NCBI GenBank assembly: GCA_029263125.1
Contig: JAJCYD010000005.1
Span: 103,720-167,719, forward strand
Source of the DNA: Solirubrobacteraceae bacterium
Lineage (GTDB): Bacteria; Actinomycetota; Thermoleophilia; Solirubrobacterales; Solirubrobacteraceae
Direction: 5' to 3'
Length of the DNA stretch: 64,000 nt
The notes beneath the pieces are model-generated. The model did not search any database and was not told where the DNA came from. It saw only the letters and a program-made list of their open reading frames with translations. The position numbers and the translations under genes are program-made. Each line of letters starts with the position of its first letter. Within the stretch, counting starts at the first letter, position 1. Shown piece after piece: positions 5,088 to 50,860 of this stretch.

Positions 5088-6188
5088 CTAGGCGACGTCG
5101 CGGAGCTTCTGGGCCTCCGCGAGGGACTGCAGCTTCTTCAAGGACTGGTTCTCGATCTGGCGGATGCGCTCGCGCGTGACGTTGAACGTGCGGCCCACCT
5201 CGTCGAGCGTGCGGGGGTGCTCGCCGCCGAGGCCGTAGCGCAGCTCGAGCACGCGGCGCTCGCGGTAGGAGAGGTTCTCCAGTGCCTCGCGCAGCGCCTC
5301 CTTGGTGAGGATCTCCGCGGCGCGCTCGTAGGGCGACTCGGCACGCTCGTCGGCGATGAACTGCCCGAACTCGGACTCCTCCTCGTCGCCGACGGGCTTC
5401 TCCAGCGAGACCGGCGCCTGCGCGGAGCGCTTGATCGAGTCGACCTCCTCGGGATCGATGCCGGTGACCTCGGCGATCTCCTCCGGGGTGGGCTCGCGAC
5501 CGAGCTCGGTGACGAGCTTGCGCTCGGCGCGGCCGATCTTGTTGAGCTTCTCGACGACGTGGACCGGGATCCGGATCGTGCGCGCCTTGTCGGCGAGCGC
5601 GCGAGCGATCGCCTGACGGATCCACCAGGTCGCGTAGGTGGAGAACTTGAATCCCTTGCGGTAGTCGAACTTCTCCGCCGCGCGCACGAGACCGAGCGTG
5701 CCCTCCTGGATGAGGTCGAGGAACGGCAGCCCCTGGTTGCGGTAGTTCTTGGCGATCGAGACGACAAGGCGCAGGTTGGATTCGACCATCTTCTGCTTGG
5801 CGTCGAGGTCGCCGCGCTCGATGCGCTTGGCGAGGTCGACCTCCTCTTGGGCGGTGAGCAGACGGACCTTTCCGATGTCCTTCAAGAACAGCTGAAGGGA
5901 GTCCGTCGTCATGTCCGGCTTGAGGTCGATCGTCGTCTTCTTGCGCGCACGGCGCTTGTCGGGCGCGCGCTCGACGGCGTTGGCGGCCGCAGCGGCTGGA
6001 TCGATCTCCTCGACGAGCTCGATCTCCGACTTCTCCAGGTAGCCGTGGAGCTCTTCGATGTCGGCCTCGTCGAGATCGACCTCGGCGACCGCGCCGGCGA
6101 TCTCGGCGTACGTGAGCACGCCGGTCAACTGGCCCTTGGCGACCAGGCCCTTGATCTCTTCGAGTTCTTGCAGTTCGACTACGGACAT
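5088..6188 (-). CDS. rpoD: Principal RNA polymerase sigma-70 factor
   Basis: Acidic region 1, [12 protein letters not shown] (region 2.4) and [19 protein letters not shown] (region 4.2). ATG at 6188 (MSVVELQ). Confidence 0.93.
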
Positions 6189-6428
6189 TGCATTCGCTTT
6201 CACGTCGTGCGCCGACTCTGGGATCCGCCCGCACACTCGAATAACCGAGGCGAGGACTGTACTTCTGGGGCAGCACCTCGCCCAACCTAAGAGGCCAACT
6301 GTAGCGTGCCGACTCAGCCACTACTACGAGTCGGTGGGCCGCCCGTCTCACGTCGCGCTGCGGGATGGCGCCGAGCACGTGGCATCATGCACGTCGTGTC
6401 TGAAGATCCCGATCCAGAGCGCGAGGTC

Positions 6429-7025
6429 ATGACGAGCCTGCCGCGCACGAGACCCGCGCGCCGCAGCTCCAAGCGGGCGCCTCGGCAGACCGCCGACGGC
6501 ACGTCCAACGGCTCCACGGCGGACCTGCCGCCGGACAGCGCGGGAGGGCAGTCGCGCGACACGCCCAAGGCGACGACGCCGGCCAAGCACAAGCCGACGG
6601 CCAAGCCCACGCCGACGGCCAAGCCCAAGGCACAGGCCAGGCCCAAGACACAGGCCAGGCCCAAGGCACAGGCCACGCCCAAGGCCCAGGCGACGACGGG
6701 GCCGGGCGCGCCGCGCCGCGAGCCACGCCGCACTCCGCGTCCCAAGCCCGCAACCGCGACGTCCGGCGATGCACCGGCAAAGCGGCGCACGGCGCCGCCG
6801 AGCGACGCGCCCCGCAGCGATCCGCCACGCGACCCGCCCAAGCGCAAGGTGCCGGCCGCCGGATATGCCGCTCCGTCCAGCCCACCTTCGGAGGATGCGC
6901 CCACGTCGCCGGTCTCGGACCTCGTGACGACGACGATGCAGGCCGCGGGCGAGCTGGCGCAGATCGGGGTCGACGTGGGGCGCTCGGCGCTGCGCTCGAT
7001 GCTGGACCGCCTTCCCAAGGCCTGA
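6429..7025 (+). CDS. Basic Pro/Ala/Lys/Thr-rich low-complexity protein with a C-terminal amphipathic helix
   Basis: High third-position GC throughout. Contains KAQARP-type tandem repeats and ends ...TTMQAAGELAQIGVDVGRSALRSMLDRLPKA. The start is ambiguous (6387 or 6429). Confidence 0.55.
   Translation: MTSLPRTRPARRSSKRAPRQTADGTSNGSTADLPPDSAGGQSRDTPKATTPAKHKPTAKPTPTAKPKAQARPKTQARPKAQATPKAQATTGPGAPRREPRRTPRPKPATATSGDAPAKRRTAPPSDAPRSDPPRDPPKRKVPAAGYAAPSSPPSEDAPTSPVSDLVTTTMQAAGELAQIGVDVGRSALRSMLDRLPKA
6627..6698. repeat. In-frame 18-nt tandem repeat, about 4 units
   Basis: Units are aaggcacaggccaggccc / aagacacaggccaggccc / aaggcacaggccacgccc / aaggcccaggcgacgacg. They encode KAQARP-KTQARP-KAQATP-KAQATT. 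Confidence 0.9.
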
Positions 7026-11446: not shown

Positions 11447-11892
11447 GGATCGCGCTCGCCGTCGATCACGCGGGCGTGGCGCTGCACGACCCGATCAGCG
11501 AGGCGCTGCGCGACGACGGCCACGAGGTCGAGGATCTCGGCGAGCACGACGACTACCCGGACGTGGCGCTGGCGATCGGTCGCGCTGTCGCGGGCGACGA
11601 CGCCGAGCGCGGCATCCTGGTCTGTGGCTCGGGCGCCGGGGTGTCGGTCGCCGCATCCAAGCTTCCGGGAATCCGTGCCGCGACCTGCCACGATCACTAC
11701 TCAGCCGCGCAGTGCGTCAGCCACGACGACTGCAACGTGCTGTGCCTCGGCGCGCGGGTGATCGGCCCGGCGGTCGCCGCCGAGCTCGCGCGGGCGTTCG
11801 CCGGCGCGACGTTCAGCGGCGAAGAACGCCACGTGCGCCGCCTACAGAAGGTCTTCATCTTGGAACGCGACGGACTGGAGTCGAAGCTGTGA
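11443..11892 (+). CDS. rpiB: Ribose-5-phosphate isomerase B
   Basis: MRIALAVDHAG...ILVCGSGAGVSVAASKLPGIRAA...NVLCLGARVIG. ATGA overlap with the glk stop. Confidence 0.9.
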   Translation: MRIALAVDHAGVALHDPISEALRDDGHEVEDLGEHDDYPDVALAIGRAVAGDDAERGILVCGSGAGVSVAASKLPGIRAATCHDHYSAAQCVSHDDCNVLCLGARVIGPAVAAELARAFAGATFSGEERHVRRLQKVFILERDGLESKL

Positions 11893-11900
11893 CAAGCGTC

Positions 11901-14636
11901 ATGAACGTCAACGAACGTCTCGCCGCCATGACCGAGACCGGCACGGCGGTCTGGCTGGATCAGATCCGCCGCTCGCTCACGCAGGGCGGCGAGCTGCGAC
12001 GGCTCGTGGAGGAGGACTCGCTGCGCGGCGTGACCTCCAACCCGGCGATCTTCGAGAAGGCGATCCTCGGTTCCCAGGACTACGACGAGCAGATCGAGCG
12101 CCTCGCGCGCGACGGCCTGAACACGCGCGCCGTGTACCAGGAGATCGTCATCCAGGACGTGCAGGAGGCCTGCGACGTCCTGCGCCCCGTCTACGACGAG
12201 CTCGACGGCGCCGACGGCTTCGTCTCGCTGGAGGTCGATCCCGACCTCGCGTTTGACTCCGACCGCACGATCGCGCAGGCCCGCGAGTACTGGGGGCGCG
12301 TGGACCGTCCCAACGTGATGATCAAGATCCCCGGCACGAGCGAGTGCCTGCCGGCGATCGAGCAGGCGACGTACGGGGGAATCAACGTCAACGTCACGCT
12401 GCTGTTCGCCGTCGACGCCTACGCCGAGGTCGCCGAGGCCTACATCCGCGGCCTGGAGCGCCGCCATGCCGAGGGCCTCTCGCTCGACGTGCGCTCGGTC
12501 GCATCGTTCTTCGTCTCGCGCGTCGACGGCGAGGTCGACAAGCGCCTGGAGGCGCTGGACCGCTCGGATCTGCGCGGCACGGCCGCGGTCGCCAACGCGC
12601 GCGCCGCCTACCAGCGCTTCGAGGAGCTCTTCCGCGGCCCGCGGTTCGCAGCGCTGGTCGCGGCGGGCGCGCCGGTGCAGCGCCCGCTATGGGCGTCGAC
12701 CGGCGTGAAGAACCCGGAGTACGCGGACACGCTGTACGTCGCGGAGCTGCTGGGTCCCGACACGGTCAACACGATGCCGATGCCGACGATGATGGCGTGC
12801 GCCGAACGCCTGGAGGTCGCGGGCGAGACCGTGCGCGAGGAGTCGGCCTCCGTGCTGGCCGGGCTGGCTGAGGCCGGCATCGACATCGGCGACGTCACCG
12901 ACAAGCTGCTGCGCGACGGCGTCGACGCGTTCGTCACGCCGATGGAGAAGCTGCTGGCCGGGATCGAGGCCAAGCGCGAGGCGATCTTCACGGGGCGCCC
13001 CGAGACGATCGACGCGTCGCTGCCCTTCGAACTGGAGGGGCACGTCGCCGAGCTCGTCAAGCGTGCCGAGACCGAGCAGGTCGCTCGGCGCATCTGGAAG
13101 AAGGACCCGACGCTGTGGGGTCCGCGCGACCAGCCAGAGGTCGCCGACCGGCTCGGCTGGCTCTGCGCGCACGAGACCTACGCCGAGCACATCGACGACC
13201 TCGAGGAGCTCGCGGCCTCGCTGGCGGCCGAGGGGTTCACGGACGCGGTGCTGCTGGGCATGGGCGGCTCGTCGCTGGCCCCAGAGGTGCTGCGCCTGAG
13301 CTTCGGCGAGCGCCAGCACGACCGCCTGCGCCTGCAGGTGCTCGACAGCACCGACCCGGGCGCCGTGCTCGCGGTGCAGTCGTCGGTGGCGCTGGAGCAC
13401 ACGATCTTCGTCGTCTCGACGAAGTCCGGCGGCACGATCGAGACGATGTCGCTGTTCGAGCACTTCTGGTCTGCGTGCCCGAACGGCTCGCAGTACGTCG
13501 CGATCACCGACCCGGGCTCGTCGCTTGCATCGCTGGCAGCCGAGCGCGGCTTCCGGCGCACGTTCCTCAACGACTCCGACGTCGGCGGGCGCTACAGCGC
13601 GCTGACGTTCTTCGGGCTCGTGCCGGCGGCACTGATGGGCGTCGATCTGCAGCGCCTGCTCGACGGCGCCGGCGTGGCGGCCGAGGCGTGCGCCGGCTAT
13701 CGCCCCAGCGAGGACAACAGCGGCCTGTGGCTGGGCATCGCGCTGGGGGCCTGCGCGCTCGCCGGCCACGACAAGCTGACGTTCGTCGTCGATGACCCGA
13801 TCGCGTCGTTCGGCGTCTGGGCCGAGCAGCTCGTCGCGGAGTCCACAGGCAAGGAGGACACGGGCGTGCTGCCGGTCGCAGACGAGCCGGTCGGCGCGCC
13901 GGAGGTCTACGGCGATGACCGCATCTTCGCCTACCTGCGCGACACCGGGAACCCCAGCGAGGAGCTCGACGCGGCGGTCACCGAGCTCGCCGACGCCGGC
14001 CACCCGACGGTGACCCTGACGACCGACGGCCCGGAGGATCTCGGCCGGATCTTCTTCATCGCCGAGTTCGCGACGGCGGTCGCCGGCTGGGCGCTCGGCA
14101 TCAACCCCTTCGACCAGCCCAACGTCCAGGAGGCCAAGGACGCGACGGCCGCGGTGCTCGATGACCTCGCCGGCGGCGGCTCGCTCGACGAGCCCGACGA
14201 CGCCGGCGACGACGCGCTGCGCGCGCTGCTGACGTGCTCGCCGCCCGCGTACGTCGCGATCCTCGGGTATGTCACGCCCGCGGCCGCGGTCGATGAGGCC
14301 ATCGCCGAGCTGCGCGTGGCTCTGCGCGATGCGACGGGCGCGACCACGACCTTCGGCTACGGGCCGCGGTACCTGCATTCGACGGGGCAACTGCACAAGG
14401 GCGGCCCGTCGGGCGGACGGTTCCTGGTGCTGGTCCACGATGGCCCCGACGACGTCGCCATCCCAGGCCGGCCGTTCGGCTTCGGCGTGCTGAAGAACGC
14501 CCAGGCGGCCGGGGACCTTGCGACGCTGCGCTCGCACGGTCTGGCGGCCGAGAAGCTGCGCCTGGAGGGCGACGATGTCGCGGCGGCGGTGCGGTCGTTG
14601 ACCGCGCGGGTCGTGGGCCTGCTGCATGGCGGCTGA
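11901..14636 (+). CDS. Bifunctional transaldolase / glucose-6-phosphate isomerase fusion
   Basis: The N-terminal half is transaldolase (VWLDQIRR...GVTSNPAIFEKA...MIKIPGT). The C-terminal half is PGI/SIS (LLGMGGSSLAPEV...FVVSTKSGGTIET...GGRYSALT). One uninterrupted 911-codon frame. Confidence 0.88.
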   Translation: MNVNERLAAMTETGTAVWLDQIRRSLTQGGELRRLVEEDSLRGVTSNPAIFEKAILGSQDYDEQIERLARDGLNTRAVYQEIVIQDVQEACDVLRPVYDELDGADGFVSLEVDPDLAFDSDRTIAQAREYWGRVDRPNVMIKIPGTSECLPAIEQATYGGINVNVTLLFAVDAYAEVAEAYIRGLERRHAEGLSLDVRSVASFFVSRVDGEVDKRLEALDRSDLRGTAAVANARAAYQRFEELFRGPRFAALVAAGAPVQRPLWASTGVKNPEYADTLYVAELLGPDTVNTMPMPTMMACAERLEVAGETVREESASVLAGLAEAGIDIGDVTDKLLRDGVDAFVTPMEKLLAGIEAKREAIFTGRPETIDASLPFELEGHVAELVKRAETEQVARRIWKKDPTLWGPRDQPEVADRLGWLCAHETYAEHIDDLEELAASLAAEGFTDAVLLGMGGSSLAPEVLRLSFGERQHDRLRLQVLDSTDPGAVLAVQSSVALEHTIFVVSTKSGGTIETMSLFEHFWSACPNGSQYVAITDPGSSLASLAAERGFRRTFLNDSDVGGRYSALTFFGLVPAALMGVDLQRLLDGAGVAAEACAGYRPSEDNSGLWLGIALGACALAGHDKLTFVVDDPIASFGVWAEQLVAESTGKEDTGVLPVADEPVGAPEVYGDDRIFAYLRDTGNPSEELDAAVTELADAGHPTVTLTTDGPEDLGRIFFIAEFATAVAGWALGINPFDQPNVQEAKDATAAVLDDLAGGGSLDEPDDAGDDALRALLTCSPPAYVAILGYVTPAAAVDEAIAELRVALRDATGATTTFGYGPRYLHSTGQLHKGGPSGGRFLVLVHDGPDDVAIPGRPFGFGVLKNAQAAGDLATLRSHGLAAEKLRLEGDDVAAAVRSLTARVVGLLHGG

Positions 14637-14684
14637 GTACCCGGCTTCTGCGTAGATCCTCAGGGACGCATCCACCAGCCGGGC

Positions 14685-14723
14685 TGGTCGGGTTACGCAT
14701 GCGAACCATGCAGAACCCGCCCA
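14685..14723. repeat. REP-like hairpin, copy 1 of a short palindromic repeat family
   Basis: tggtcgggttacgcatg-cgaac-catgcagaacccgccca. Same core as copies at 14757, 50799 and 50861. Confidence 0.7.
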
Positions 14724-14756
14724 ATTCACCGCAGGGCGCACAGATTCTGCGAGTCC

Positions 14757-14793
14757 GGGCGGGTTTGGCATCCATGTCATGCCGAACCCGCCC
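14757..14793. repeat. REP-like hairpin, copy 2 (best preserved; may also act as a terminator between convergent genes)
   Basis: gggcgggtttggcat-ccatgtc-atgccgaacccgccc. 15-bp stem with one G-T wobble. Confidence 0.8.
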
Positions 14794-14888
14794 AGCCCTC
14801 GCGATGGCATGGCCCGCCGACCACGCCGGAGCGCCGTGATCGTGACCTGCACCCGCTCCCAACAGCGACCCCGTATGGCCCAGGCAGG

Positions 14889-15573: not shown

Positions 15574-16008
15574 ATGTCTGGAGAATGGCTTGGCACGAAC
15601 GTCCCGCTGCATGCTCATCACGAGCGACCGGTGGGAATGGGCCTGCACATCTGCGCGGTCGTTCAGCGCGGATCGGGTTCCCCCAGGGAGTACGTCGAGG
15701 TCGTCAACGACGGTGCCGAGCCGGTGACCGTGACGGGGCTTGAGCTGACGGACTGCCCCGGGCAGCACCACGAGCATGTCTATACGTTTCCGCAGGGCGA
15801 GCTCGAGCCCGGCGAGACGGCCTACATCTACAGCGCGAGCGGCTCGAACCAGCGCACGCGCACCGGCGACCTGATCCTGTACGCCGGCCTGCAGGCATCC
15901 GTCTGGCAGGACGACTCGCATGTCGCATTCCTGCGCCACCCGGATGGCCAGATCATCGACACGATGCATGCCGGGCGCCCGCCGCGCCATCCCGACGGCC
16001 ACTCGTAG
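15574..16008 (+). CDS. Lamin-tail-domain (LTD) protein with no signal peptide
   Basis: EYVEVVNDGAEPVTVTGLELTD...GETAYIYS...VWQDDSHVAFLRHPDGQIID matches the LTD pattern. ATG at 15574 is in frame. Confidence 0.6.
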   Translation: MSGEWLGTNVPLHAHHERPVGMGLHICAVVQRGSGSPREYVEVVNDGAEPVTVTGLELTDCPGQHHEHVYTFPQGELEPGETAYIYSASGSNQRTRTGDLILYAGLQASVWQDDSHVAFLRHPDGQIIDTMHAGRPPRHPDGHS

Positions 16009-16050
16009 CGGACACGACCACGACGCTCGCGTCTGCGCGTCGTCGGACCC

Positions 16051-16163
16051 GTGCACAACTGACGTCTCGATCGATGCCAGCCGCGGATCCGGCAGTTATG
16101 CATCACAGTGATGCATAACTGCCGAGTCGAGAATCAAGCGCTGTCGAGCCGTCAGTTGTGCAC
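16051..16163. repeat. 113-nt nested-palindrome element, copy A
   Basis: Perfect 14-bp terminal inverted repeats gtgcacaactgacg / cgtcagttgtgcac. Perfect 33-nt apical palindrome ggcagttatgcatcac-a-gtgatgcataactgcc (16091..16123). Second copy at 33733..33845. Confidence 0.9.
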
Positions 16164-16267
16164 GCGTGACCCACAAGGGTGACCCCCGAGATGGACTACC
16201 GCGCTCCGCACACTCCGGGCTCCCTCGCGCTCTGCCGGTGCTCGCTCAGTGAGCGGATCTGGCTAGC

Positions 16268-18862
16268 GTGCGGCGCATGAGCCTGGTCGATGCCCTTCCC
16301 GCCGAGCCCAGCGCCGATGCGCTCTACGACGCCTTCACCGACTGGGCGGCGGGGCAACACCTAAGCCTGTATCCGCATCAGGAGGAGGCGGCGATCGAGC
16401 TGTTCACCCACAACAACGTGGTGCTCGCCACGCCGACCGGCTCGGGGAAGTCGATCGTCGCGGTGGCCGCGCATTTCGCGGCGCTGGCCGAGGGCCGCGT
16501 GACGTTCTACACGGCGCCGATCAAGGCGCTGGTCTCGGAGAAGTTCTTCGCGCTCTGCACGATCTTCGGCGCACAGAACGTCGGGATGCTGACCGGGGAC
16601 GCGTCGGTCAACGCCGATGCGCCGATCATCTGCGCCACGGCGGAGGTGCTGGCGAACATCGCGCTGCGTGAGGGCGCCGGCGCGGATGTCGGCCAGGTCG
16701 TGATGGACGAGTTTCACTACTACGCCGACGGCCAGCGCGGCTGGGCATGGCAGGTGCCGCTGCTGACGCTGCCCGGCGCGCAGTTCCTGCTGATGTCCGC
16801 CACGCTTGGCGACGTCTCGGAGATCGCCGACGACCTGACCCGCCGAACGGGTCGCGAGACGGTGGTCATCGGCGACGCGCAGCGGCCGGTGCCGCTCACC
16901 TTCGCCTGGTCGGCGCAGCCGATTCACGAGCTGCTGGAGGAGCTGGCGGCGGCCGATCAAGCGCCGATCTACGTCGTGCACTTCACGCAGGCATCGGCGA
17001 TGGAGCGTGCACAATCGCTGCTGTCGGCGAAGCTGTGCACGCGCGAGGAGCGCGACGCGATCGCGGACGCGCTCGGCGCGTTTCGCTTCACCGCCGGCTT
17101 CGGGCGCACGCTGTCAAAGCTCGTGCGGGGCGGCGTCGGGGTGCACCACGCCGGGATGCTACCGCGCTACCGGCGCCTGATCGAGCAGCTCGCGCAAACG
17201 GGCCTGCTGAAGGTGATCTGCGGCACCGACACGCTCGGCGTGGGCATCAACGTCCCGATCCGCACGGTGCTCTTCACGAGCCTGGCGAAGTTCGACGGCA
17301 CCCGCCACCGGTTGCTGAAGGCACGCGAGTTTCATCAGATCGCCGGGCGCGCCGGACGCCCCGGCTTCGACACGCGCGGCACCGTCGTCGTGCAGGCGCC
17401 CGATCACGTCATCGAGCGCACGCGCGCGCTGGCCAAGGCGGGCGACGATCCGAAGAAGCGCCGCAAGGTCCAGACCAAGAAGCCCGCCGACGGCGAGGTC
17501 AGCTGGACCGAGGAGACCTTCGAGCGCCTGAAGTCCGCCGTGCCCGAGCCGCTCGTGTCGCGCATGCGCGTCGACCACGCGACGATCCTCAACGTCGTCA
17601 ACCAGCCGGCGGACCCCGTCGAGGCGATGCGAGCGCTGATGGAGGACAACCACGAGGACGAGCGCGGGCGCCGGCGCCTGGTGGCGCGCGCGCAGGAGCT
17701 CGGGGACGAGCTCGTGGGCGCCGGCGTGCTCGTGTGGCTGGCAGAGCCCGACCCGGAGGGCCGCACCCTGAAGCTCGCCATCGAGCTGCAGTCGGACTTC
17801 GCGCTCAACCAGCCGCTTGCGTCCTTCGCCTTCGAGGCGTTCGGACTGCTGGACGCGGAGTCCGACACCTACACCCTGGACGTGCTGTCGGTGCTCGAGG
17901 CGATCCTCGACGATCCGTTCCCCGTGCTGATGGCCCAGGCACACAAGGCGCGTGGCGAGGCGGTCGCCGAGATGAAGGCCCAGGGCATCGAGTACGACGA
18001 GCGCATGGAGCTGCTGGAGGAGGTCAGCTATCCCAAGCCGCTGGGCGAGCCGCTGCTGGACGCGCTGCGCACCTACCGCGAGACCCATCCGTGGGTGCGC
18101 GACTGCGACCTCTCCCCGAAGTCGGTCGTGCGCGACATGTACGAGGGCGGGCGCACGTTCACCGAGTTCGTCGCCTTCTACGGCCTCGCGCGCTCGGAGG
18201 GCCTGGTGCTGCGATACCTCAGCAACGCCTACCGGGCGCTGCGCCAGACAGTGCCCGAGGAGGTCAAGACCGACGAGCTCGACGAGCTCATCGAGTGGCT
18301 CGGGGAGACCGTGCGCCAGACCGACTCGAGCCTGCTCGACGAGTGGGAGGCGCTCACGGATCCCGAATCGGTCGCCCGCGTGGCGCAGGCCATGGCAGCG
18401 GGCGAGACGGCCCCGCCGCCGCGCCCGATCACCGCGAACCCGCGTGCGTTCAACGTCATGGTCCGCAACGCGATGTTCCAGAAGGTCCAGCTGGCGGCAC
18501 GCGACGACGCTCCTGGTCTCGCCCAGCTCGAGGCCGCGGCCGCCGCACTCGCCGACCCGCCGGGCAAGGTCGCGATGAACGCGGATGCATGGGAGGCCGC
18601 GCTGGGCGCCTACTGGGACGAGTACGACGCGATCGACACCGGACCCAACGCTCGGTCGCCGCAGCTGCTGATGATCGACCGCCAAGCGGGCGGGGCCGCA
18701 GCACGAATGTGGGCGGTGCGCCAGATCATCGGCGACCCCGACGACCACCACGACGTCGCGATCGTGGCAACGGTCGACCTCGACGCCTCCGACGCGGCCG
18801 GAGAGCCGGTGATCCGCACCACGTCCTTCCGATCAGCCCACTTCGCCGGCCCAAACCCGTAG
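16268..18862 (+). CDS. Superfamily-2 DEAD/DEAH-box helicase with a long C-terminal extension (DUF3516-type)
   Basis: ATPTGSGKS (motif I), VMDEFHY (motif II), MSATLG (III) and HHAGMLP/QIAGRAGRPG (VI). Alternative ATG start at 16277. Confidence 0.85.
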   Translation: MRRMSLVDALPAEPSADALYDAFTDWAAGQHLSLYPHQEEAAIELFTHNNVVLATPTGSGKSIVAVAAHFAALAEGRVTFYTAPIKALVSEKFFALCTIFGAQNVGMLTGDASVNADAPIICATAEVLANIALREGAGADVGQVVMDEFHYYADGQRGWAWQVPLLTLPGAQFLLMSATLGDVSEIADDLTRRTGRETVVIGDAQRPVPLTFAWSAQPIHELLEELAAADQAPIYVVHFTQASAMERAQSLLSAKLCTREERDAIADALGAFRFTAGFGRTLSKLVRGGVGVHHAGMLPRYRRLIEQLAQTGLLKVICGTDTLGVGINVPIRTVLFTSLAKFDGTRHRLLKAREFHQIAGRAGRPGFDTRGTVVVQAPDHVIERTRALAKAGDDPKKRRKVQTKKPADGEVSWTEETFERLKSAVPEPLVSRMRVDHATILNVVNQPADPVEAMRALMEDNHEDERGRRRLVARAQELGDELVGAGVLVWLAEPDPEGRTLKLAIELQSDFALNQPLASFAFEAFGLLDAESDTYTLDVLSVLEAILDDPFPVLMAQAHKARGEAVAEMKAQGIEYDERMELLEEVSYPKPLGEPLLDALRTYRETHPWVRDCDLSPKSVVRDMYEGGRTFTEFVAFYGLARSEGLVLRYLSNAYRALRQTVPEEVKTDELDELIEWLGETVRQTDSSLLDEWEALTDPESVARVAQAMAAGETAPPPRPITANPRAFNVMVRNAMFQKVQLAARDDAPGLAQLEAAAAALADPPGKVAMNADAWEAALGAYWDEYDAIDTGPNARSPQLLMIDRQAGGAAARMWAVRQIIGDPDDHHDVAIVATVDLDASDAAGEPVIRTTSFRSAHFAGPNP

Positions 18863-19001
18863 TACGCGCCGCAGGCGCGCGGGCCGCTTCGCCGCGCCTC
18901 CTCCGCTTGAACAAGCTCGTTCACCTACCAGACACATCCACCGGCCTATGCTCCCGGTAGATCGACTCGTGCACCACCCACGACCTCCCGGGAGCGCACC
19001 C

Positions 19002-19952
19002 TTGACTCAGATCGGATTCGTCGGCCTCGGAAAGATGGGCGGCAACATGGTCGCCCGCATCACGCGCGACTCCGACCATGACGTCGTCGCCTTCGACCGC
19101 GACCCCGACGTCGTCACGACGATCGCCGAGCAGACCGGCGCCCGGGGCGCCGACTCCCTCGAAGACCTCGTCGGCAAGCTGCAAGCGCCGCGCCTGGTCT
19201 GGATCATGGTCCCCGCGGGCGCGCCCACCCAGGGCACGGTTGATGCCCTCGCCGAGTTGCTGCAAGCAGGCGACACGGTCGTCGACGGCGGCAACTCCAA
19301 GTGGACCGACGACAAGGCCCGCGCCGCGACGCTCGCCGCCGGCGGCATCGACTACGTCGACGTCGGCACGAGCGGCGGCGTCTGGGGGCTGGAGGTCGGC
19401 TACTGCATGATGGTCGGCGGACCCGACGAGGCGGTCACGCGCTTGGCGCCGATCCTCGACGTCCTCGCGCCCGAGACCAACGAGCTCAGCCGCGACGCGA
19501 TCGGCCCGCGCGGGTGGGGGCATTTCGGACCGTCGGGCGCCGGGCACTACGTGAAGATGGTCCACAATGGCGTCGAGTACGGCCTCATGCAGGCCTACGC
19601 GGAGGGCTTTGATCTCTTCGACAAGTCCGAGTACGACCTGGACAACGCGAAGATCGCGCACCTGTGGGGGCAGGGCTCGGTCGTGCGCTCGTGGCTGTGC
19701 GAGCTCGCCGCGCGCGCGTTTGAGCTGCAGGGCAACGACCTCTCAGAGCTCAGCGGCTACACCGCGGACTCCGGCGAGGGCCGCTGGACGATCGCCGAGG
19801 CCATGGACCGCGACGTTCCCACGCCGGTCATCACCGCCTCGCTCTTCGCGCGCTTCTACAGCCGCGCCAACGGCGACTTCACCCACCGCATGCTGTCCGC
19901 GCTGCGCGCGCAGTTCGGCGGGCACGCGACGAAGAAGTCCGCCGACGGATGA
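19002..19952 (+). CDS. gnd: 6-phosphogluconate dehydrogenase, short decarboxylating form
   Basis: IGFVGLGKMGGNMV...DGGNS...KMVHNGVEYGLMQAYAEGF. TTG at 19002 with GGGAG upstream; the longer ORF start is less likely. Confidence 0.85.
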   Translation: MTQIGFVGLGKMGGNMVARITRDSDHDVVAFDRDPDVVTTIAEQTGARGADSLEDLVGKLQAPRLVWIMVPAGAPTQGTVDALAELLQAGDTVVDGGNSKWTDDKARAATLAAGGIDYVDVGTSGGVWGLEVGYCMMVGGPDEAVTRLAPILDVLAPETNELSRDAIGPRGWGHFGPSGAGHYVKMVHNGVEYGLMQAYAEGFDLFDKSEYDLDNAKIAHLWGQGSVVRSWLCELAARAFELQGNDLSELSGYTADSGEGRWTIAEAMDRDVPTPVITASLFARFYSRANGDFTHRMLSALRAQFGGHATKKSADG

Positions 19953-21487
19953 CCCCACCCGCCCAGCCGCCACCAGGCACAAATCCACTGACCGAAGCGC
20001 TCGAGCGCCAACCCGTCCACGCGACGGTGCTCGTGATCTTCGGCGCGACGGGCGACCTCGCCAAGCGCAAGCTGCTGCCCGCGCTCTATAACCTCGCCCA
20101 CGAGGGCGCGCTGCCCGAGCACTTCGCGCTGATCGGCAACGCCCGCTCCGAGCTCTCAGATGAGGAGTTCCGCGCGTCGGCCGTGGCTTCGGTGCGGGAG
20201 TTCTCGCGCCGCGAGCCCGACGAGACGGTGCTCGACAAGCTCTTCGCCGACGCGCGCTACGTGAGCGGGTCCTTCGGCGACGACGAGGTCTTCGAGAGCC
20301 TCGCGACGATCCTGCCCGAGCTCGACGAGCGGGCCGGCGTGACGCTGAACCGCTGCTTCTACCTCTCCACGGCGCCGGAGTTCTTCCCGGTCATCGTCAA
20401 GCAGCTCGGCGCGCACGATCTCGGCGAGCCCGCGGACGCCGAGGCCCGCGTGATCATCGAGAAGCCGTTCGGCACGCGCCTGCAGGAGGCACGCGAGCTC
20501 AACGAGACGGTGCTGTCGGTCTTCGAGGAGCGCCAGGTCTTTCGCATCGACCACTACCTCGGCAAGGAGACCGTCCAGAACGTGCTGGCGCTGCGCTTCG
20601 CCAACGGGATGTTCGAGCCGTTGTGGAACCGCAACTACATCGACCACGTGCAGATCACCGCCTCGGAGGACATCGGGATCGGCACGCGGGCGGGCTACTA
20701 CGACAACGCGGGAGCGCTGCGTGACCTCGTCCAGAACCACATGCTCCAGCTGCTGACGCTGCTGTGCATGGAGCCGCCGGTCGACTTCTCCGCCGACGAG
20801 GTCCGCAATGAGAAGGTCAAGGTCCTGCGCGCGATCCACGCCCCGACCGAGGACGAGGTCGCCGACATGACGGTGCGAGGGCAGTACACCGCGGGCAACG
20901 TCGCCGGCGTGGATGTGCCGGGCTACCTCGACGAGGACGGCGTGCCCGAGGACTCCCACACCGAGACGTTCGCGGCGCTGCGCCTGGAGGTCGACAACTG
21001 GCGCTGGGCGGGCGTGCCGATGGTGCTTCGCACCGGCAAGTCGCTGGCGCGCAAGGTCACCGAGATCGCCGTGACGCTCAAGCCCGTCCCCCACATCGCC
21101 TTTACCGGCGAGGGCTCCCAAGGCGTGCGGCCCAACGTGCTCGTGCTGACCGTGCAGCCCAACGAGGGCGTCTCGCTGGCGATCGGCGCGAAGATCCCCG
21201 GCACGCGGATGGCGATCCGCCAGGTGCAGATGGAGTTTCTCTACGGCTCGGCGTTCTTGTCGCAGTCACCGGAGGCCTACGAGCGGCTGATCCTCGACGC
21301 GATGCGCGGCGACGCGACGCTCTTCACCCGCAACGACGAGGTCGAGGCGCAGTGGAACATCATCGACCCGATCATCGCCGCCTGGCAGCGGACGACCGAG
21401 CCGCCGGCGCGCTATGAGGCCGGCTCGCAGGGACCCGCCGAAGCGCAGACGCTGCTCGGCGCCAATCGCGCGTGGAGGATGATCTGA
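19949..21487 (+). CDS. zwf: Glucose-6-phosphate 1-dehydrogenase
   Basis: VIFGATGDLAKRKL, RIDHYLGKE and EKPFG motifs. ATGA overlap with gnd. Confidence 0.93.
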   Translation: MTPPAQPPPGTNPLTEALERQPVHATVLVIFGATGDLAKRKLLPALYNLAHEGALPEHFALIGNARSELSDEEFRASAVASVREFSRREPDETVLDKLFADARYVSGSFGDDEVFESLATILPELDERAGVTLNRCFYLSTAPEFFPVIVKQLGAHDLGEPADAEARVIIEKPFGTRLQEARELNETVLSVFEERQVFRIDHYLGKETVQNVLALRFANGMFEPLWNRNYIDHVQITASEDIGIGTRAGYYDNAGALRDLVQNHMLQLLTLLCMEPPVDFSADEVRNEKVKVLRAIHAPTEDEVADMTVRGQYTAGNVAGVDVPGYLDEDGVPEDSHTETFAALRLEVDNWRWAGVPMVLRTGKSLARKVTEIAVTLKPVPHIAFTGEGSQGVRPNVLVLTVQPNEGVSLAIGAKIPGTRMAIRQVQMEFLYGSAFLSQSPEAYERLILDAMRGDATLFTRNDEVEAQWNIIDPIIAAWQRTTEPPARYEAGSQGPAEAQTLLGANRAWRMI

Positions 21488-22575
21488 GCCCCACGGCCGT
21501 CAGCGACGCCGTCTGGAGCGCGCAGGACACGACCCCCGCGGCGATCGAGGCCGCGCTGAGCACGCTCGTCGCCGAGCGCCATCGCGAGAACGAGTGCTAC
21601 GTCGCCGCGCGCGCGCTGAACCTCGTGTGCATCGTCGACGCGCAGTTCAGCGGCGAGGTCGCCAACCGCCTGCGCCGCGTCGGGCGCTACCACGCGTCGC
21701 GAACCGTCGTCTGCTCGGTCTCGCCCGGCCGCGCGACGATCGATGCGCGCGCGACGGTCGCCTCGGAGGCCGACCCGCGCCCCGGCGAGTTCTCGCTGAT
21801 GCGCGAGACGGTCGTCGTGTCGGTCGGCGAGCGCCACGTCCCCCACCTCGCCCGGATCGTCGACCCGCTCGTGGTGACCGACCTGTCGACCGTCGTGTGG
21901 TCGCCGCACGGCAATCGCGCCGCGGTGGACTCCCTCGTCGCGCCGGCCGGCGGCACGCGGCCGATCGCGCAAACCGTGTTGCTGGACTCCGCCAGCGAGC
22001 CCGATCAGCGCGCGGCGCTTGACCGCGTCTGCACCCTAGCCCAGCGCGCCGCCGTCGTGGACCTCGGGTGGCTGCGCGCGACGCCGTGGCGCGAGCGCGT
22101 CGCCGCGCACTACGACCCCGCCGGCCGCCGGCCCGAGCTCGGCACGATCTCCAAGGTCTCCGTGCGCCATGGCTCCGATTCGCTGGTGTCCGGGCTGCTG
22201 CTGATCGGCTGGCTGTGCGACCGGTTGGGCTGGCGGCCCGAGCAGCTCACGCGCCACGGCGACCTGCTGCGCGGCCGCGCGCGCTCACGGCGCGGCGAGG
22301 TGGAGCTGCGCCTCGAGCCGACCGGGATCATGCGCGTGCCGGGCCTGTCGGGCGTGGAGATCCGTTCGGACCTCGGCTCGGTGCTGGCGCTTGAGCGCGG
22401 CGAGGGCGGGCTGACGGCGCGCCGCACCGAGCGCGGCGGTGAGCAGCGCTCGTGGACGGTGCTCGGCGCCTCGCGCGGCGAACCCGGGATCCTGGGCGAG
22501 GGCATCCGACACACGCTGCTGCCAGACGCCACCTACGCTCCCGCGCTGGCGGCCGCACGGAGCATGCTCGCGTGA
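21472..22575 (+). CDS. opcA: Glucose-6-phosphate dehydrogenase assembly protein OpcA
   Basis: Lies immediately after zwf with a 16-nt overlap. ARALNLVCIVD...RYHASRTVV pattern is typical of OpcA. Confidence 0.8.
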   Translation: MEDDLSPTAVSDAVWSAQDTTPAAIEAALSTLVAERHRENECYVAARALNLVCIVDAQFSGEVANRLRRVGRYHASRTVVCSVSPGRATIDARATVASEADPRPGEFSLMRETVVVSVGERHVPHLARIVDPLVVTDLSTVVWSPHGNRAAVDSLVAPAGGTRPIAQTVLLDSASEPDQRAALDRVCTLAQRAAVVDLGWLRATPWRERVAAHYDPAGRRPELGTISKVSVRHGSDSLVSGLLLIGWLCDRLGWRPEQLTRHGDLLRGRARSRRGEVELRLEPTGIMRVPGLSGVEIRSDLGSVLALERGEGGLTARRTERGGEQRSWTVLGASRGEPGILGEGIRHTLLPDATYAPALAAARSMLA

Positions 22576-24494
22576 AGCAGGTCGTCTCCAGCTCGCCGCT
22601 GGGCGGCAGCCCGTTCCCGCCGATCGCCGACTACGCGTTCCTGTCGGACTGCGAGGCCACGGCGCTCGTGGCGCCCAACGGCAACGTCGAGTGGATGTGC
22701 GTCCCGCGGATGGACAGCCCGAGCCTGTTCGGCGCGATGCTCGATCGCGACGCGGGGATGTTCACCCTGTCACCGGCCGATACCAACGTGCCCGCCGGCC
22801 GGCGCTACCTGCCGGGAACGAACATCCTGGAGACGACGTGGGGAACGAAGTCCGGCTGGCTGATCGTTCGCGACGTGCTGCTCGTCGGCCCGTGGCGCCA
22901 TGACCGCGACCGGTCGCAGACCCATCGCCGCTCGCCAACCGACTACGACGCCGAGCATGTCCTGCTGCGCACGCTGCGCTGTGTCAACGGAACCGTGCAG
23001 ATGCAGATGGAGTGCGACCCGATCTACGACTACGGCCGCTGCCCCGCGGAATGGGAGTACGCGGGCGAGGCCTATGAGGAGTGCACGGCGACCTTCGAGG
23101 GCTGCGACCTGACGCTGAGCCTGCGCTCGGACCTGCGCCTCGGCATCGAGGGCGCCCGCGTGCAGGCGCGATCGACGATGCACGACGGCGACCTCGCCTA
23201 CGTGGCGATGAGCTGGGGCGGGCACCCGGCCCCGCAGGACTTCGAGGACGCCTACAAGCGCCTGGTGTTCACCGCCGACTACTGGCACGAGTGGCTCTCG
23301 CAGGGCCGCTTCCCCGATCATCCGTGGCGCGAGCACCTGCAGCGCTCGGCGCTGACGCTCAAGGGCCTGTCCTACGCGCCGACGGGCGCGCTCCTCGCGG
23401 CGCCGACCACGTCGCTGCCCGAGACCCCGGGCGGCAACCGCAACTGGGACTACCGCTACACGTGGATCCGCGACTCCACGTTCATGCTGTGGAGCCTGTA
23501 CTCGCTGGGCTTCGACTGGGAGGCCGACGACTTCTTCAACTTCCTCGCCGAGGTCTGCGACCAGGATGGCCTGCAGGTCATGTACGGCATCGGCGGAGAG
23601 CGCGAGCTCGACGAGTCCGAGCTCGATCATCTCGGGGGCTATGAGAACGCCCGGCCGGTGCGGATCGGAAACGGCGCCTACAAGCACCGCCAGCACGACG
23701 TCTGGGGCAGCTTCCTGGACTCCTTCTACCTGCACACGAAGTCGCGCGACAGCCTGCGCGAGCGCTACTGGCCGCTGATCTACGACCAGGTCGAGCAGGC
23801 ACTGACGCACTGGCGCGAGCCCGACCGGGGCATCTGGGAGATCCGCGGCGAGCCCCAGCACTTCACGTTCTCGAAGATCATGTGCTGGGTCGCCGCCGAC
23901 CGCGGCGCGCGCCTGGCGCGCCTGCGCGAGGACGACGAGCGCGCCGAGCGCTGGCAGGCGGCTGCCGACGAGATCCACGCCGACGTGCTCGAACACGGCG
24001 TCGACGAGCGCGGGGTGCTCACCCAGCGATACGGCTCGCCGGCCCTGGATGCGTCGCTGCTGATGATCCCGCTCGTGCGCTTCCTGCCGCCCGACGACGA
24101 GCGCGTCGTGAGGACCGTCAACGCGATCGCCGAGGAGCTGACGGTCCACGGGCTCGTGCTGCGCTACCGCGTCGACGAGACCGACGACGGCCTGGATGCC
24201 CAGGAGGAGGGCACGTTCACGATCTGCTCGTTCTGGCTGGTCAGTGCTCTGTCGGAGATCGGCGAGCACCGCCGCGCGCGTGAGCTGTGCGAGCGACTGC
24301 TGGCCTACGCCAGCCCGCTGCTGCTCTACGCCGAGGAGCTCGACCCGCAGTCCGGGCGCCACCTGGGCAACTTCCCGCAGGCCTTCACGCACCTGGCACT
24401 GATCAACGCCACGTTGCACGTGATCCGCGCCGACGACCGGCTCGCCCAGGAGAACCAGGTGCTCGACGCCACGCGCCGGGAGTCCGAGCCGTGA
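22572..24494 (+). CDS. Glycoside hydrolase family 15 protein (trehalase/glucoamylase-like)
   Basis: IADYAFLSDCEATALVAPNGNVEWMCVPRMDSP...NWDYRYTWIRDS...FWLVSAL. GTGA overlap with the opcA stop. Confidence 0.85.
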   Translation: MKQVVSSSPLGGSPFPPIADYAFLSDCEATALVAPNGNVEWMCVPRMDSPSLFGAMLDRDAGMFTLSPADTNVPAGRRYLPGTNILETTWGTKSGWLIVRDVLLVGPWRHDRDRSQTHRRSPTDYDAEHVLLRTLRCVNGTVQMQMECDPIYDYGRCPAEWEYAGEAYEECTATFEGCDLTLSLRSDLRLGIEGARVQARSTMHDGDLAYVAMSWGGHPAPQDFEDAYKRLVFTADYWHEWLSQGRFPDHPWREHLQRSALTLKGLSYAPTGALLAAPTTSLPETPGGNRNWDYRYTWIRDSTFMLWSLYSLGFDWEADDFFNFLAEVCDQDGLQVMYGIGGERELDESELDHLGGYENARPVRIGNGAYKHRQHDVWGSFLDSFYLHTKSRDSLRERYWPLIYDQVEQALTHWREPDRGIWEIRGEPQHFTFSKIMCWVAADRGARLARLREDDERAERWQAAADEIHADVLEHGVDERGVLTQRYGSPALDASLLMIPLVRFLPPDDERVVRTVNAIAEELTVHGLVLRYRVDETDDGLDAQEEGTFTICSFWLVSALSEIGEHRRARELCERLLAYASPLLLYAEELDPQSGRHLGNFPQAFTHLALINATLHVIRADDRLAQENQVLDATRRESEP

Positions 24495-25201
24495 CGCGCG
24501 TGCGTTCGTTTCCCGACGCCGAGGCCGTCGCCCGCTATGCCGCAGACGCGCTCGCGTGGCGGATCGGCGATGCGCGCAAGTCGGGCCGGGAGGTGCACAT
24601 CGCGCTCGCCGGCGGGGGAACGCCGCGCCGCACCTACGAGCTGCTGGCGGACATCGAGGCGGCGTGGAATCACGTCCATCTGTGGCTCGGCGACGAGCGT
24701 TGCGTGCCGCCCGACCACCCCGACTCCAACGCGCGGATGGTGCGCGAGTCGCTGTATGCCAACGCGCGCGCCGAGCCTCCGAAGCTGCACGAACTGCCTT
24801 CGCCCGAGGTTCCCGAGGACGCTGCCTGGCTCTACGGCCTGCAGATCCGCGATGCGATGCCGGACCTCGTCTTCGACATCGTGCTGCTCGGCATGGGGCC
24901 TGACGGGCACACGGCCTCGCTGTTCCCCGGTCACCCGGGGCTGCGCGCAACCGAGGCGCCCTGCATCGCCGTGCGCGACTCGCCCAAGCCACCGCCCGAG
25001 CGCGTGACGCTGACGCTGCCGGTGCTGCGCCGCGCCCGCCACACCCTGCTGCTCGTGACCGGCGCCGACAAGCGCGAGGCGCTGGCGCGGACGCTGGCGG
25101 GCGATGAGTCGCTGCCGCTGGCGTTGCTGGGAGCGGGGTTGGACGAGGTCGCGTGCGACCCGGCCGCCGCCGCGGCCGACCCGACATCGTCGCGGCGCTG
25201 A
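24491..25201 (+). CDS. pgl: 6-phosphogluconolactonase
   Basis: HIALAGGGTPRRTYELL...HLWLGDERCVP...LLGMGPDGHTASLFPG. GTGA overlap with the GH15 stop. Confidence 0.88.
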   Translation: MTRVRSFPDAEAVARYAADALAWRIGDARKSGREVHIALAGGGTPRRTYELLADIEAAWNHVHLWLGDERCVPPDHPDSNARMVRESLYANARAEPPKLHELPSPEVPEDAAWLYGLQIRDAMPDLVFDIVLLGMGPDGHTASLFPGHPGLRATEAPCIAVRDSPKPPPERVTLTLPVLRRARHTLLLVTGADKREALARTLAGDESLPLALLGAGLDEVACDPAAAAADPTSSRR

Positions 25202-25214
25202 GGTGTGAATCCGT

Positions 25215-25364
25215 TTGGCGCTGCTGGACGGCACCCGTGATCGCACCGCGCTGGTGGCAGCGCCGGCCGGGGCCGACGGCGTCGCGCAGGTCGACCTCGC
25301 GGCCGACATGGATCTCAGCCTGAGCACGCTCGCGCGCGTGGCGCTGCTCAGGCCCGACCAGTGA
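25215..25364 (+). CDS. Candidate small ORF (49 codons, below the track cutoff) or a gene fragment
   Basis: TTG start 9 nt after AGGTG. 46 of 50 codons end in G/C while second positions are balanced. Reads (M)ALLDGTRDRTALVAAPAGADGVAQVDLAADMDLSLSTLARVALLRPDQ. Confidence 0.3.
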   Translation: MALLDGTRDRTALVAAPAGADGVAQVDLAADMDLSLSTLARVALLRPDQ

Positions 25365-26917: not shown

Positions 26918-28510
26918 TCAGCGCAGCTCGATCGCCCGCGGCATGGTGAAGGTCTTGTAGGTCTTGCGGTTGCGGGTGGTCTTGCGCACCCTCGTGCTCA
27001 GGCGATACACCGCGGCCGGTCCGTCGGGGGCGTCGATCGTGACGCTGTAGCGGCCCTTGGAGTCCGGGCGGATGCGCTTGACGACCTTCGTGCTCTTGCA
27101 CGACACCCGCTGGCTGACGACGATCCTCGCGACCGGCCGGCCGAGCGGCAGGATCACCCGGCCCGACAGCCGGACCTTGCCGCCCGAGCTGCGCGGCGTG
27201 TTGATGACCATCCGCCTGCGCAGCTTGAGGGCCAGCGAGCGCTCCTTGCCGACGATCGCCTGATAGCGCGCCCGGTTGGTGTTTCGCAGGCGCTTGGCCG
27301 GCAGCTTCGTGCGCGCGGTGAAGCTGCCGTCCGAGCGGATCTTCGTCGTCGTGACGGTCTTGCCGGTCCCGCGGAAGCGGATCGAGACGGTCCGGCCCGC
27401 AAGGCTGCGATCGGCGACGCCCAGCAGCCGTACCCGGCCTTTGAGCTCCTTGACGTCGGTCAGCACGAGCCGGCGGGAGGTGCAGCCCAGCACGAGATCA
27501 GCGGCGGCGTTCGCGGATTCCGGTGCGCCGCAGGCACCGGAGCCGCTGACGATCGCCTCGCCGACGACGAGATCGGCGAGGCTCTGTCCGAGGATCGAGA
27601 CCTGCACGCGCAGCGCCTGCTGGCGCAGGGTGGTGCCCGCGCGCGTCTGCTGGCCGGGCGTGACCTTCACCTGCGCGAGCGTCGCGGGAATGGCGATCGT
27701 AGGCAGCGCGTCGAGCACCGCCTTGACGGTCGTCCGCAGCAGCGTTCCGAAGAGGGCGTTGTCGAAGCTCAGACCAGCCGGCAGCGCGATCAGCGACAGG
27801 TCGACGTTCGAGGGATCGATGCTGCCGCTGTCGATCAACGTCAGCACCTGATCGAGCGCGCCACCGATGCCGAGGTCCTGCCCGAGCACCGAGATCCCGG
27901 CCACGGTCGAGGTCCCGCTGAGCTGTGGCGTCCCGCCCGTGGCGCACCGCGCGGCGGCATACGCCATCGCCCCCTGCACGCGCAGCAGCTCGGCGGTCGG
28001 CAGCTGACCGTTGGGCACGAGCGCCTGGAGCGCGGGGCGCAGGTCCAGCGAGAGGTTGGCGATCGACCCCAGGATCGGTGTCAGCAGCGTTTGCAGGGTG
28101 CCCGTGATCGGGACGGTGACGCTCGCGAGCGCATCGCCGATCTGGGCGGTCGGGAGCGTGATCGGCAGCTGCGGCAACGCCAGGACGCGCACGTCGGCGA
28201 TCCCGCCCGCGGCTCCCGCGGTCTCGGCGCCGGGCGATCCGCCGAAGACCGTGTTCGCGCTCACCGCGTTGGCGGACAACAGGACCGGCAGGGGAGCGTT
28301 GAGCCCGGCGGCGGCGGTGCGGCAGGCGCCCGAGCCGCGGTTGGCGACGACGGGCTCGATGACCGCACCGCCGAGCACCGTGCCGCGAACGGCGCTGGCC
28401 TCGCAGCCGAAGGACGCGGCGGATGCCGCCGACGGCGCAGCCGCCGAGGCAAGCGCGGCGATCAGCGCGGCGGTCAGCAACCCGGCGCGATGTGAGCGAA
28501 GGTGACGCAT
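26918..28510 (-). CDS. Secreted hypothetical protein: Ala/Gly/Leu-rich region followed by two very basic beta-sandwich-like repeats
   Basis: GAGGAG RBS, then MRHLRSHRAGLLTAALIAALASAAAPSAASA signal peptide. GSGAC occurs twice. The C-terminal repeats are G(R/K)VRL.G...GR.V.I...IR.D..G.(F/Y) (carboxypeptidase-regulatory-like). Confidence 0.7.
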   Translation of the reverse strand: MRHLRSHRAGLLTAALIAALASAAAPSAASAASFGCEASAVRGTVLGGAVIEPVVANRGSGACRTAAAGLNAPLPVLLSANAVSANTVFGGSPGAETAGAAGGIADVRVLALPQLPITLPTAQIGDALASVTVPITGTLQTLLTPILGSIANLSLDLRPALQALVPNGQLPTAELLRVQGAMAYAAARCATGGTPQLSGTSTVAGISVLGQDLGIGGALDQVLTLIDSGSIDPSNVDLSLIALPAGLSFDNALFGTLLRTTVKAVLDALPTIAIPATLAQVKVTPGQQTRAGTTLRQQALRVQVSILGQSLADLVVGEAIVSGSGACGAPESANAAADLVLGCTSRRLVLTDVKELKGRVRLLGVADRSLAGRTVSIRFRGTGKTVTTTKIRSDGSFTARTKLPAKRLRNTNRARYQAIVGKERSLALKLRRRMVINTPRSSGGKVRLSGRVILPLGRPVARIVVSQRVSCKSTKVVKRIRPDSKGRYSVTIDAPDGPAAVYRLSTRVRKTTRNRKTYKTFTMPRAIELR

Positions 28511-33732: not shown

Positions 33733-33845
33733 GTGCACAACTGACGGCTCGTTGATCGCCCGCAGCCAATCCGGCAGTTATGCATCAAGGTGATGCATAA
33801 GCGCCGAGTCGAGGATCACGCCGGGTCGATCCGTCACTTGTGCAC
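33733..33845. repeat. 113-nt nested-palindrome element, copy B
   Basis: Ungapped 92/113 identity to copy A in the same orientation. Terminal repeats match 14/14 and 13/14. Apex reads ggcagttatgcatca-agg-tgatgcataagcgcc. Confidence 0.9.
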
Positions 33846-50837: not shown

Positions 50838-50860
50838 GCCAGACCCGCATCGCATCGAGC

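Follow-up and report, generated by a model that had tools for sequence, protein, structure and literature searches.

A small palindromic repeat with REPIN-like features, built from four copies of a 14-nt box, in a member of the Solirubrobacteraceae

Two copies of a 113-nt intergenic element, A and B, were identified in the window, the whole 64-kb stretch of Solirubrobacteraceae DNA that was analysed, and in each copy a 14-nt box (RTGCAYAACTGNCG) is repeated four times, giving two inverted doublets. On balance, the evidence leans towards an interspersed palindromic repeat of the REP/REPIN/BIME kind that is non-coding and confined to its lineage, which is equivalent to a MITE without target-site duplications (TSD). 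It looks like a previously undescribed small palindromic repeat family of a familiar class and not a new kind of system; as it stands, this orphan family opens no new question.

Copy A is at 16051..16163 (+) and copy B at 33733..33845 (+), scoring 144.7 and 135.1 bits with the covariance model (CM). They are direct repeats approximately 17.7 kb apart and are identical at 92 of 113 positions (81%) without gaps. The similarity ends sharply at the limits of the element, beyond which the flanks are unrelated and cannot be aligned. This agrees with the first-pass annotation, in which a second copy of the same length and orientation, with unrelated flanks, had been reported. A search of the window with nhmmer identified each of the two with E ~1e-37 and no further copy in the 64 kb. 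The perfect 14-bp terminal inverted repeats that had been described for A are present, with GTGCACAACTGACG at 16051-16064 (+) and 16150-16163 (-), 0 mismatches each; in B the same sequence is at 33733-33746 (+, 0 mismatches) and 33832-33845 (-, 1 mismatch). These four are the only matches in the window, where 0.5 would be expected, and none of 100 shuffles reached four. The AT-rich centre of A, at 16091..16123, is likewise a perfect 33-nt palindrome (16 + 1 + 16) as had been stated, GGCAGTTATGCATCAC-A-GTGATGCATAACTGCC, with two ATGCAT cores and a G+C content of 48%, which is lower than that of the 1-kb flanks (68%) and of the whole window (71%).

A single 14-nt box, present four times, accounts for what had been called a nested palindrome, a feature that was overlooked in the first-pass annotation. 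The homology of the inner to the outer boxes was found when a profile of the terminal unit also matched the arms of the central palindrome. In copy A, box 1 (16051..16064, +) is of the G-type, GTGCACAACTGACG, and forms the left terminal inverted repeat with its head outward; box 2 (16090..16103, -) is of the A-type, ATGCATAACTGCCG on the minus strand, and forms the left arm of the apex palindrome; box 3 (16111..16124, +) is also of the A-type, ATGCATAACTGCCG; and box 4 (16150..16163, -), of the G-type, is the right terminal inverted repeat. The boxes of copy B are less regular. Its box 1 (33733..33746, +, G-type) and box 2 (33772..33785, -, A-type) are exact, box 3 (33793..33806, +) is degenerate, ATGCATAAGCGCCG, with 2 mismatches (CT to GC at element positions 69-70), and box 4 (33832..33845, -, G-type) has 1 mismatch, GTGCACAAGTGACG. 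When the box was sought as RTGMAYAACTGNCG with no more than 1 mismatch, there were 7 matches in the window against 0.27 expected, all of them within A and B, and no solo box was found elsewhere in the 64 kb. Comparison with the outer unit, GTGCACAACTGACGTCTCGAT, shows 15 identities over 21 positions for the inner right arm of A, ATGCATAACTGCCGAGTCGAG, a score equalled by 21 of 20,000 shuffles (p ~0.001), and 14 over 21 for the inner left arm of B (180 of 20,000 shuffles as good, p ~0.009). On this evidence, the inner and outer units are homologous.

Each doublet, of approximately 53 nt, has a G-type box on the outside and an A-type box on the inside, in opposed orientation and separated by 25 nt of poorly conserved spacer. 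A 7-nt linker (CACAGTG) connects the two doublets head to head, so that pairing gives a 14-bp stem from the outer boxes and a 16-bp stem from the inner ones. At the ends of the element the box is extended to approximately 20 nt, (CGC)GTGCACAACTGACGKCTCGA, a unit that has only a 6-nt palindromic head, with no internal hairpin and no GTAG. The 14-nt signature RTGCAYAACTGNCG is usable for typing and for tracing the mobilising enzyme.

Both copies are situated between co-directional plus-strand genes, as had been noted before. Copy A is 42 nt past the stop of a Lamin-tail-domain (LTD) gene (16008) and 113 nt ahead of the ATG of a helicase gene (16277). Copy B is 125 nt past the stop of an SDR gene (33607) and 60-72 nt ahead of a TfoX_N gene. 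The best protein matches assign the window to a Solirubrobacterales (Thermoleophilia) organism. The helicase is a DUF3516 SF2 protein with no more than 89% identity to proteins from MAGs, the named matches being Solirubrobacteraceae, Baekduia and Paraconexibacter. An N-terminal alignment and an exact-protein match place its start at ATG 16277 and rule against the first in-frame GTG (16268). A TANNNT-type -10 box, TAGCGT, read from the sequence at 16264-16269, ends 7 nt ahead of this ATG and suggests that the helicase mRNA may be leaderless. In Logan contigs of the same strain, the called ORFs do not cover the element, and the translations of A and B have almost no 5-residue words in common.

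The pentose-phosphate genes in this part of the window are split, with a fused transaldolase-PGI ORF (974 aa) apart from gnd-zwf-opcA-GH15-pgl (window 11712-14636 and 16277-25300). The DUF2269 gene, the LTD gene, copy A and the DUF3516 helicase gene are found between the two parts.

The DNA of relatives was examined over approximately 124 kb around homologues of the helicase (87-89% identical) and of the LTD protein (82-83%), with TfoX homologues also fetched. No related sequence is present in the upstream regions of the helicase genes of four relatives (L007, L012, L018 and L019) or of the TfoX gene of L012, and none was found at the LTD genes in the fetched loci. Since the helicase, LTD and TfoX genes of the relatives are without it, the element is not an ancestral feature of these genes. 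Each of the three genes has other neighbours in every relative examined, from which it follows that this lineage has a highly fluid gene order. With gene order unconserved around them, the relatives' loci offered no empty site.

A third member of the family is nevertheless present in this DNA, at 13600-13719 of a contig from another Solirubrobacterales organism (L015; ena:ERZ25039516 contig_8382). The CM built from A and B matches it end-to-end (E = 2.5e-4 over 200 kb; 31.2 bits), and it is also detected by nhmmer (E = 0.01). It lies in a gene-free gap at a locus unrelated to the sites of A and B, and not beside helicase or TfoX genes. Its left end, TGAACAACTGACGTCTCGAC, agrees with the left end of A at 19 of 20 positions. 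The terminal hexamers are ATGAAC/GTTCAT, against GTGCAC/GTGCAC in the window, so that there have been two double changes with complementarity kept. The interior differs from that of A and B, with no ATGCAT apex and with an extra internal unit: a doublet of 59 nt (13600-13658; CM E = 0.003) is closed by a second unit resembling the right end, and a third unit is at the far right. Because this member keeps its paired ends and yet differs inside, the end box is the conserved, co-evolving part of the family and the interior the variable part.

The L015 element is flanked by direct repeats of 108 nt that are 94% identical (13485-13592 and 13744-13850), the first of which runs up to the element's left end. 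Both repeats contain a GAAGGCCCGC...GCGGGCCTTC hairpin and have no Rfam match above noise. It is possible that these repeats are a long duplication tied to insertion, or else a tandem duplication.

Another sequence from the relatives was rejected as a member of the family. This is a perfect 34-nt palindrome at 13828-13861 of L007, ATACCAACTCGCTTATG/CATAAGCGAGTTGGTAT, which shares with the element only the TTATGCATAA centre and was taken to be a stand-alone operator-like site. It has an MMPL gene on one side and a Pyr_redox_2 / lactamase_B-rhodanese / TauE cluster on the other, and an ArsR-type HTH gene is close by.

The inverted repeat of A extends imperfectly to 24 nt (16047-16070 / 16144-16167, 92%), and the CGC just outside GTGCAC is mostly conserved across seven aligned end-units. 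On account of this conservation, the full element is probably approximately 119 nt, A being 16048-16166 and B 33730-33848, with a semi-conserved CGC added to each side. Target-site duplications, for which inspection of the flanks had been recommended, are found neither at A and B nor at the L015 member with either the 113-nt or the 119-nt limits. A palindromic duplication (GTGCAC, TGCA or GC) is formally possible at A and B, the terminal GTGCAC being a 6-bp palindrome; the L015 member has ends, ATGAAC...GTTCAT, that are not a direct repeat. Three copies without a target-site duplication argue against a classical MITE made by a DDE enzyme, and the lack of one fits elements of the REPIN type, not those of the DDE type.

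The 21 differences between A and B are not evenly spread (Fisher p = 0.0009): 15 of the 43 loop or spacer positions are changed, and 6 of the 70 stem positions. Boxes and stems therefore evolve at a slower pace than the spacers. The boxes are either under constraint or of younger age, and variation in the spacers is unrestricted. All 6 stem changes in B break pairs and none is compensatory, so the covariation that had been proposed as a check was not seen between these copies. B looks like a decaying copy of an A-like sequence because its stem changes break pairs in this uncompensated way, and such changes are as expected for the decay of a selfish repeat. The pattern of divergence is that of REPIN and MITE populations, and is unlike that of a conserved RNA structure.

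A rival reading is that of a functional RNA. The element would then be a long terminator, factor-independent or 'I-shaped', whose hairpin also stabilises mRNA and is under selection where the LTD and SDR genes end, or else it would be an sRNA or a structured part of a 5'-UTR. The folding check that had been suggested gave a very stable predicted structure for A (-66.9 kcal/mol, z = -8.8), with -52 kcal/mol (z = -4.5) for B, both copies are suitably placed at 42 nt and 125 nt past the stops of co-directional genes, and stems are better conserved than loops. The reverse strands of A and B, however, fold about equally well, as expected for a DNA palindrome, and the fold of the L015 member is no better than that of shuffles (z = -0.3). 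The stems are followed by GCGTGACC in A and ATGCAAAC in B, with no U-tract and no match to a terminator consensus, and there are 0 terminator-like sites at both loci. Rfam matches at gathering thresholds in the window are limited to a tmRNA and a TPP riboswitch, both outside the elements, and at E up to 10 the region 15950-16270 has only noise matches of 14-15 bits. The element is therefore not a named Rfam family, in line with the first-pass annotation. The suggestion made there of a structured RNA or terminator tip is weakened by the equal folding of the strands, the missing U-tract and the lack of compensatory changes between A and B, where every stem change in B breaks a pair, and a functional RNA seems improbable.

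The location of A and B upstream of plus-strand genes, in equal orientation, would also suit a cis-regulatory module. The four boxes, above all the 10-3-10 apex TTATGCATCA-N3-TGATGCATAA, would then be operators of a dimeric or tetrameric regulator of the helicase and TfoX_N genes, both of which are plausibly linked to DNA metabolism. The centre of the apex is 170 nt ahead of the helicase ATG and 117-129 nt ahead of the TfoX start, and the 10+10 half-sites are identical in A and B despite the decayed stem of B. In L012 the helicase and TfoX genes are 1.3 kb apart, hinting at a functional link. It could be that the shared orientation of A and B and their place upstream of DNA-related genes are meaningful, there being only two copies. 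Such a regulator is nonetheless unlikely. The likely helicase promoter is approximately 100 nt downstream of A, the L015 member has neither the ATGCAT apex nor such genes beside it, and the similarity of A and B spans all 113 nt. As this similarity includes the spacers, A and B share descent and are not convergent operators. The dimeric-regulator site that had been put forward is further weakened in that the box occurs only inside the elements and the orthologous genes of the relatives are without it. Known sites whose consensus sequences were compared by eye (the actinobacterial RecA-NDp/PafBC promoter, LexA box, CIRCE/HAIR and IHF site) were rejected, none fitting both copies, and a scan for sigma-70 promoters gave no sites at the A and B loci.

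A further reading makes the element a substrate for site-specific recombination, as an attC-like (R''-L''...L'-R') or Xer/resolvase-type site, in which case the direct copies might bracket an excisable or invertible segment of 17.6 kb. The element resembles an integron attC in having four boxes in two inverted pairs that are paired on folding, and in a length within the attC range. The GCACAAC / GTTGTGC of the outer boxes agrees at 6 of 7 positions with the attC core consensus, RYYYAAC / GTTRRRY. Set against this are the 25 nt between outer and inner boxes, where the R and L boxes of attC are approximately 5 nt apart, and the 81% identity of the copies. A cassette array is lacking, the scanned ORFs do not include intI, and the approximately 17.6 kb between the copies consists of housekeeping genes. 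An identity as an integron attC was rejected on the grounds of the missing array, the missing intI and the box spacing, and recombination of any such kind is very unlikely.

The genes of the window are of a housekeeping kind, including tal-pgi, gnd, zwf, opcA, pgl, ergothioneine genes, a sigma factor, tmRNA and a TPP riboswitch, and the composition is uniform. A genomic island or att sites were likewise rejected, given this uniform composition and the core-metabolism genes (gnd, zwf, opcA, pgl and the ergothioneine genes) between A and B. No transposase, integrase, recombinase or RAYT (Y1_Tnp) is present among the 39 window ORFs scanned against Pfam, and neither RAYT nor transposase is among the gene calls of the relatives' fetched loci. 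The original proposal of a MITE- or REP-type mobile element therefore stands in part. The discrete ends, unrelated flanks, decay-like differences and the L015 member at another location support it; the lack of a target-site duplication, of a transposase or RAYT among the scanned ORFs of the window, and of an empty site do not.

REPINs are inverted doublets of conserved short sequences around a less conserved spacer, they form hairpins and are extragenic, and their hairpins have been reported with compensatory changes (PMC3116915). Because its architecture best matches that of the published REPINs and REP clusters (PMC3116915, PMC5581495), a dispersal enzyme that recognises the boxes is proposed for the element. 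Like a REPIN, it is extragenic and of approximately 100 nt, has conserved short inverted boxes around a less conserved spacer, is predicted to form a long hairpin as ssDNA or mRNA, and is without a target-site duplication. As in REP clusters, the units alternate in orientation, forming a tetrad in the window's copies and, in L015, a triplet. There are also differences. Tens to hundreds of copies are usual for REPINs, whereas 2 are known here in 64 kb and 1 in approximately 124 kb of relatives' DNA. Between A and B there are 0 compensatory and 6 pair-breaking changes, in contrast to REPINs, although A/B and L015 differ by two paired double changes, on the basis of three copies only. REP-RAYT systems have a single-copy RAYT (Y1_Tnp) gene associated with the repeats, of which there is none among the 39 ORFs scanned. 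The REPIN/RAYT systems of the cited papers are from Pseudomonas, Escherichia and Haemophilus (PMC5581495), unlike the present host, which belongs to the Thermoleophilia (Actinomycetota).

Counting against the REPIN reading are the small number of known copies (three), the lack of a RAYT among the scanned ORFs, and the lack of GTAG and of compensatory changes between A and B. In E. coli, the REP unit is imperfectly palindromic and carries a conserved GTAG tetranucleotide at the 5' side; the 14-nt box of the element is not an imperfect palindrome and has no 5' GTAG. As its features agree only partly with those of REP/RAYT systems proper, membership of these is not established.

MITEs with functional hairpins are known from other bacteria, such as the Correia elements of Neisseria and the ERIC/IRU sequences of the enterobacteria. 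The terminal inverted repeats at discrete ends that characterise a MITE are present in the element (14/14 in A, 13/14 in B). It is similar to Correia and ERIC sequences in size (~100-150 nt), in its terminal inverted repeats and intergenic location, often with co-transcription, and in an interior that varies between subfamilies. As in ERIC, an inverted repeat is conserved at its centre. Target-site duplications (TA in the case of Correia) and descent from a DDE insertion sequence characterise Correia elements and most MITEs. The element differs from them, and from DDE-derived MITEs generally, in that flanking direct duplications are absent at its three copies; no parent insertion sequence was found among the 39 scanned ORFs or the gene calls of the fetched loci, and there is no similarity to the plasmid and phage collections.

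The family appears, from the sequence searches, to be narrow and lineage-restricted. The exact 20-mer apex pattern TTATGCATCANNNTGATGCATAA was sought in 185,579 species genomes. Its 6 matches, all in Bacillaceae, Erysipelotrichaceae and Moraxellaceae of low GC, were rejected as hairpins that occur by chance. There were 0 exact matches to the terminal-repeat pair and the right inner block in the JGI metagenomes, and 0 to three blocks in IMG/VR. A high-copy family across many taxa is excluded, since these exact-block scans gave no true match. Using blastn, chance matches of no more than 40 nt were obtained with plasmids and nothing with phages. A full-text literature search for the element sequences found no paper, and the literature searches yielded neither a description of the sequence nor a pairing of Solirubrobacterales with MITEs or of Conexibacter with REP sequences.

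Logan contigs of the same strain (SRR15505512/13) break at the elements. One (L009) starts 11 nt to the left of A, at window position 16040; two (L010 and L011) both stop at position 85 of B, and another (L020) starts at position 57 of B (window 33789-33817). From the ends of the contigs L010, L011 and L020, the assembly graph appears to branch at the apex loop of B in two samples. This branch could be due to another B-like copy, a strain polymorphism or an artefact of the palindrome. Hairpins of this kind coincide with contig ends in short-read assemblies of the strain.

If the element is an interspersed repeat of the REP/REPIN kind, an enzyme acting in trans would recognise the boxes and scatter copies into intergenic DNA. 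Recognition would probably take place on folded single-stranded DNA, for which a RAYT/HUH-type or other TSD-free transposase would be suitable. After insertion, the copies would decay. In place, a copy would probably act passively, by analogy with REP elements, as a very stable hairpin in any read-through transcript. The hairpin might be a barrier to 3'-5' decay, a pause site or weak terminator, or an insulator between co-directional genes, so that copies may insulate or stabilise the transcripts of neighbouring genes. Should the element prove to be multi-copy in its source genome, a REPIN/BIME-like repeat would be added to the Solirubrobacterales, which are abundant and poorly studied soil Actinomycetota.

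A bolder version, which seems improbable, is that the four-box hairpin is the substrate of an undescribed TSD-free transposition or recombination system in the Thermoleophilia. The enzyme would be RAYT/HUH-like, or like an attC-type tyrosine recombinase, acting on folded ssDNA; the doublet of approximately 53 nt would be the replicative unit and the tetrads its dimers. If true, this would be the first REPIN-like 'replicator' population to be described in this deep actinobacterial lineage.

A second palindromic intergenic family, unrelated to A and B, is present in the window at 14681-14798 and 50799-50899. It consists of four hairpin units of approximately 42 nt, rich in GCATGC/CATGC and ending in GAACCCGCCC, which are 63-89% alike and are arranged in two pairs. 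One pair is between tal-pgi and the DUF2269 gene and the other is near the tmRNA gene, approximately 190 nt away from its 3' end. Folding of the pairs gave z = -4.2 and -3.0. This family is absent from the relatives' fetched loci and from Rfam. From its presence it follows that the source genome tolerates REP-like repeats.

Other features were identified elsewhere in the window. The tmRNA gene is at 51089-51455 (-), with 169 bits, and a 23-nt hairpin at 51044-51091 abuts its 3' end. The TPP riboswitch, at 57462-57574 (+) with 65.7 bits, overlaps the start of the longest ORF at 57543-58931. An ergothioneine-type cluster is located between A and B at 28509-31835, with genes for a class-V aminotransferase, an FGE-sulfatase/DinB_2 protein (EgtB-like) and a histidine-specific methyltransferase (EgtD-like). 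Upstream of the ORF for the principal sigma factor, 5088-6236 (-), there are 4-5 tandem repeats of 18 nt (ACGCCCAAGGCGACGACG-like) at 6561-6650, which could encode a stretch rich in Lys, Pro and Ala.
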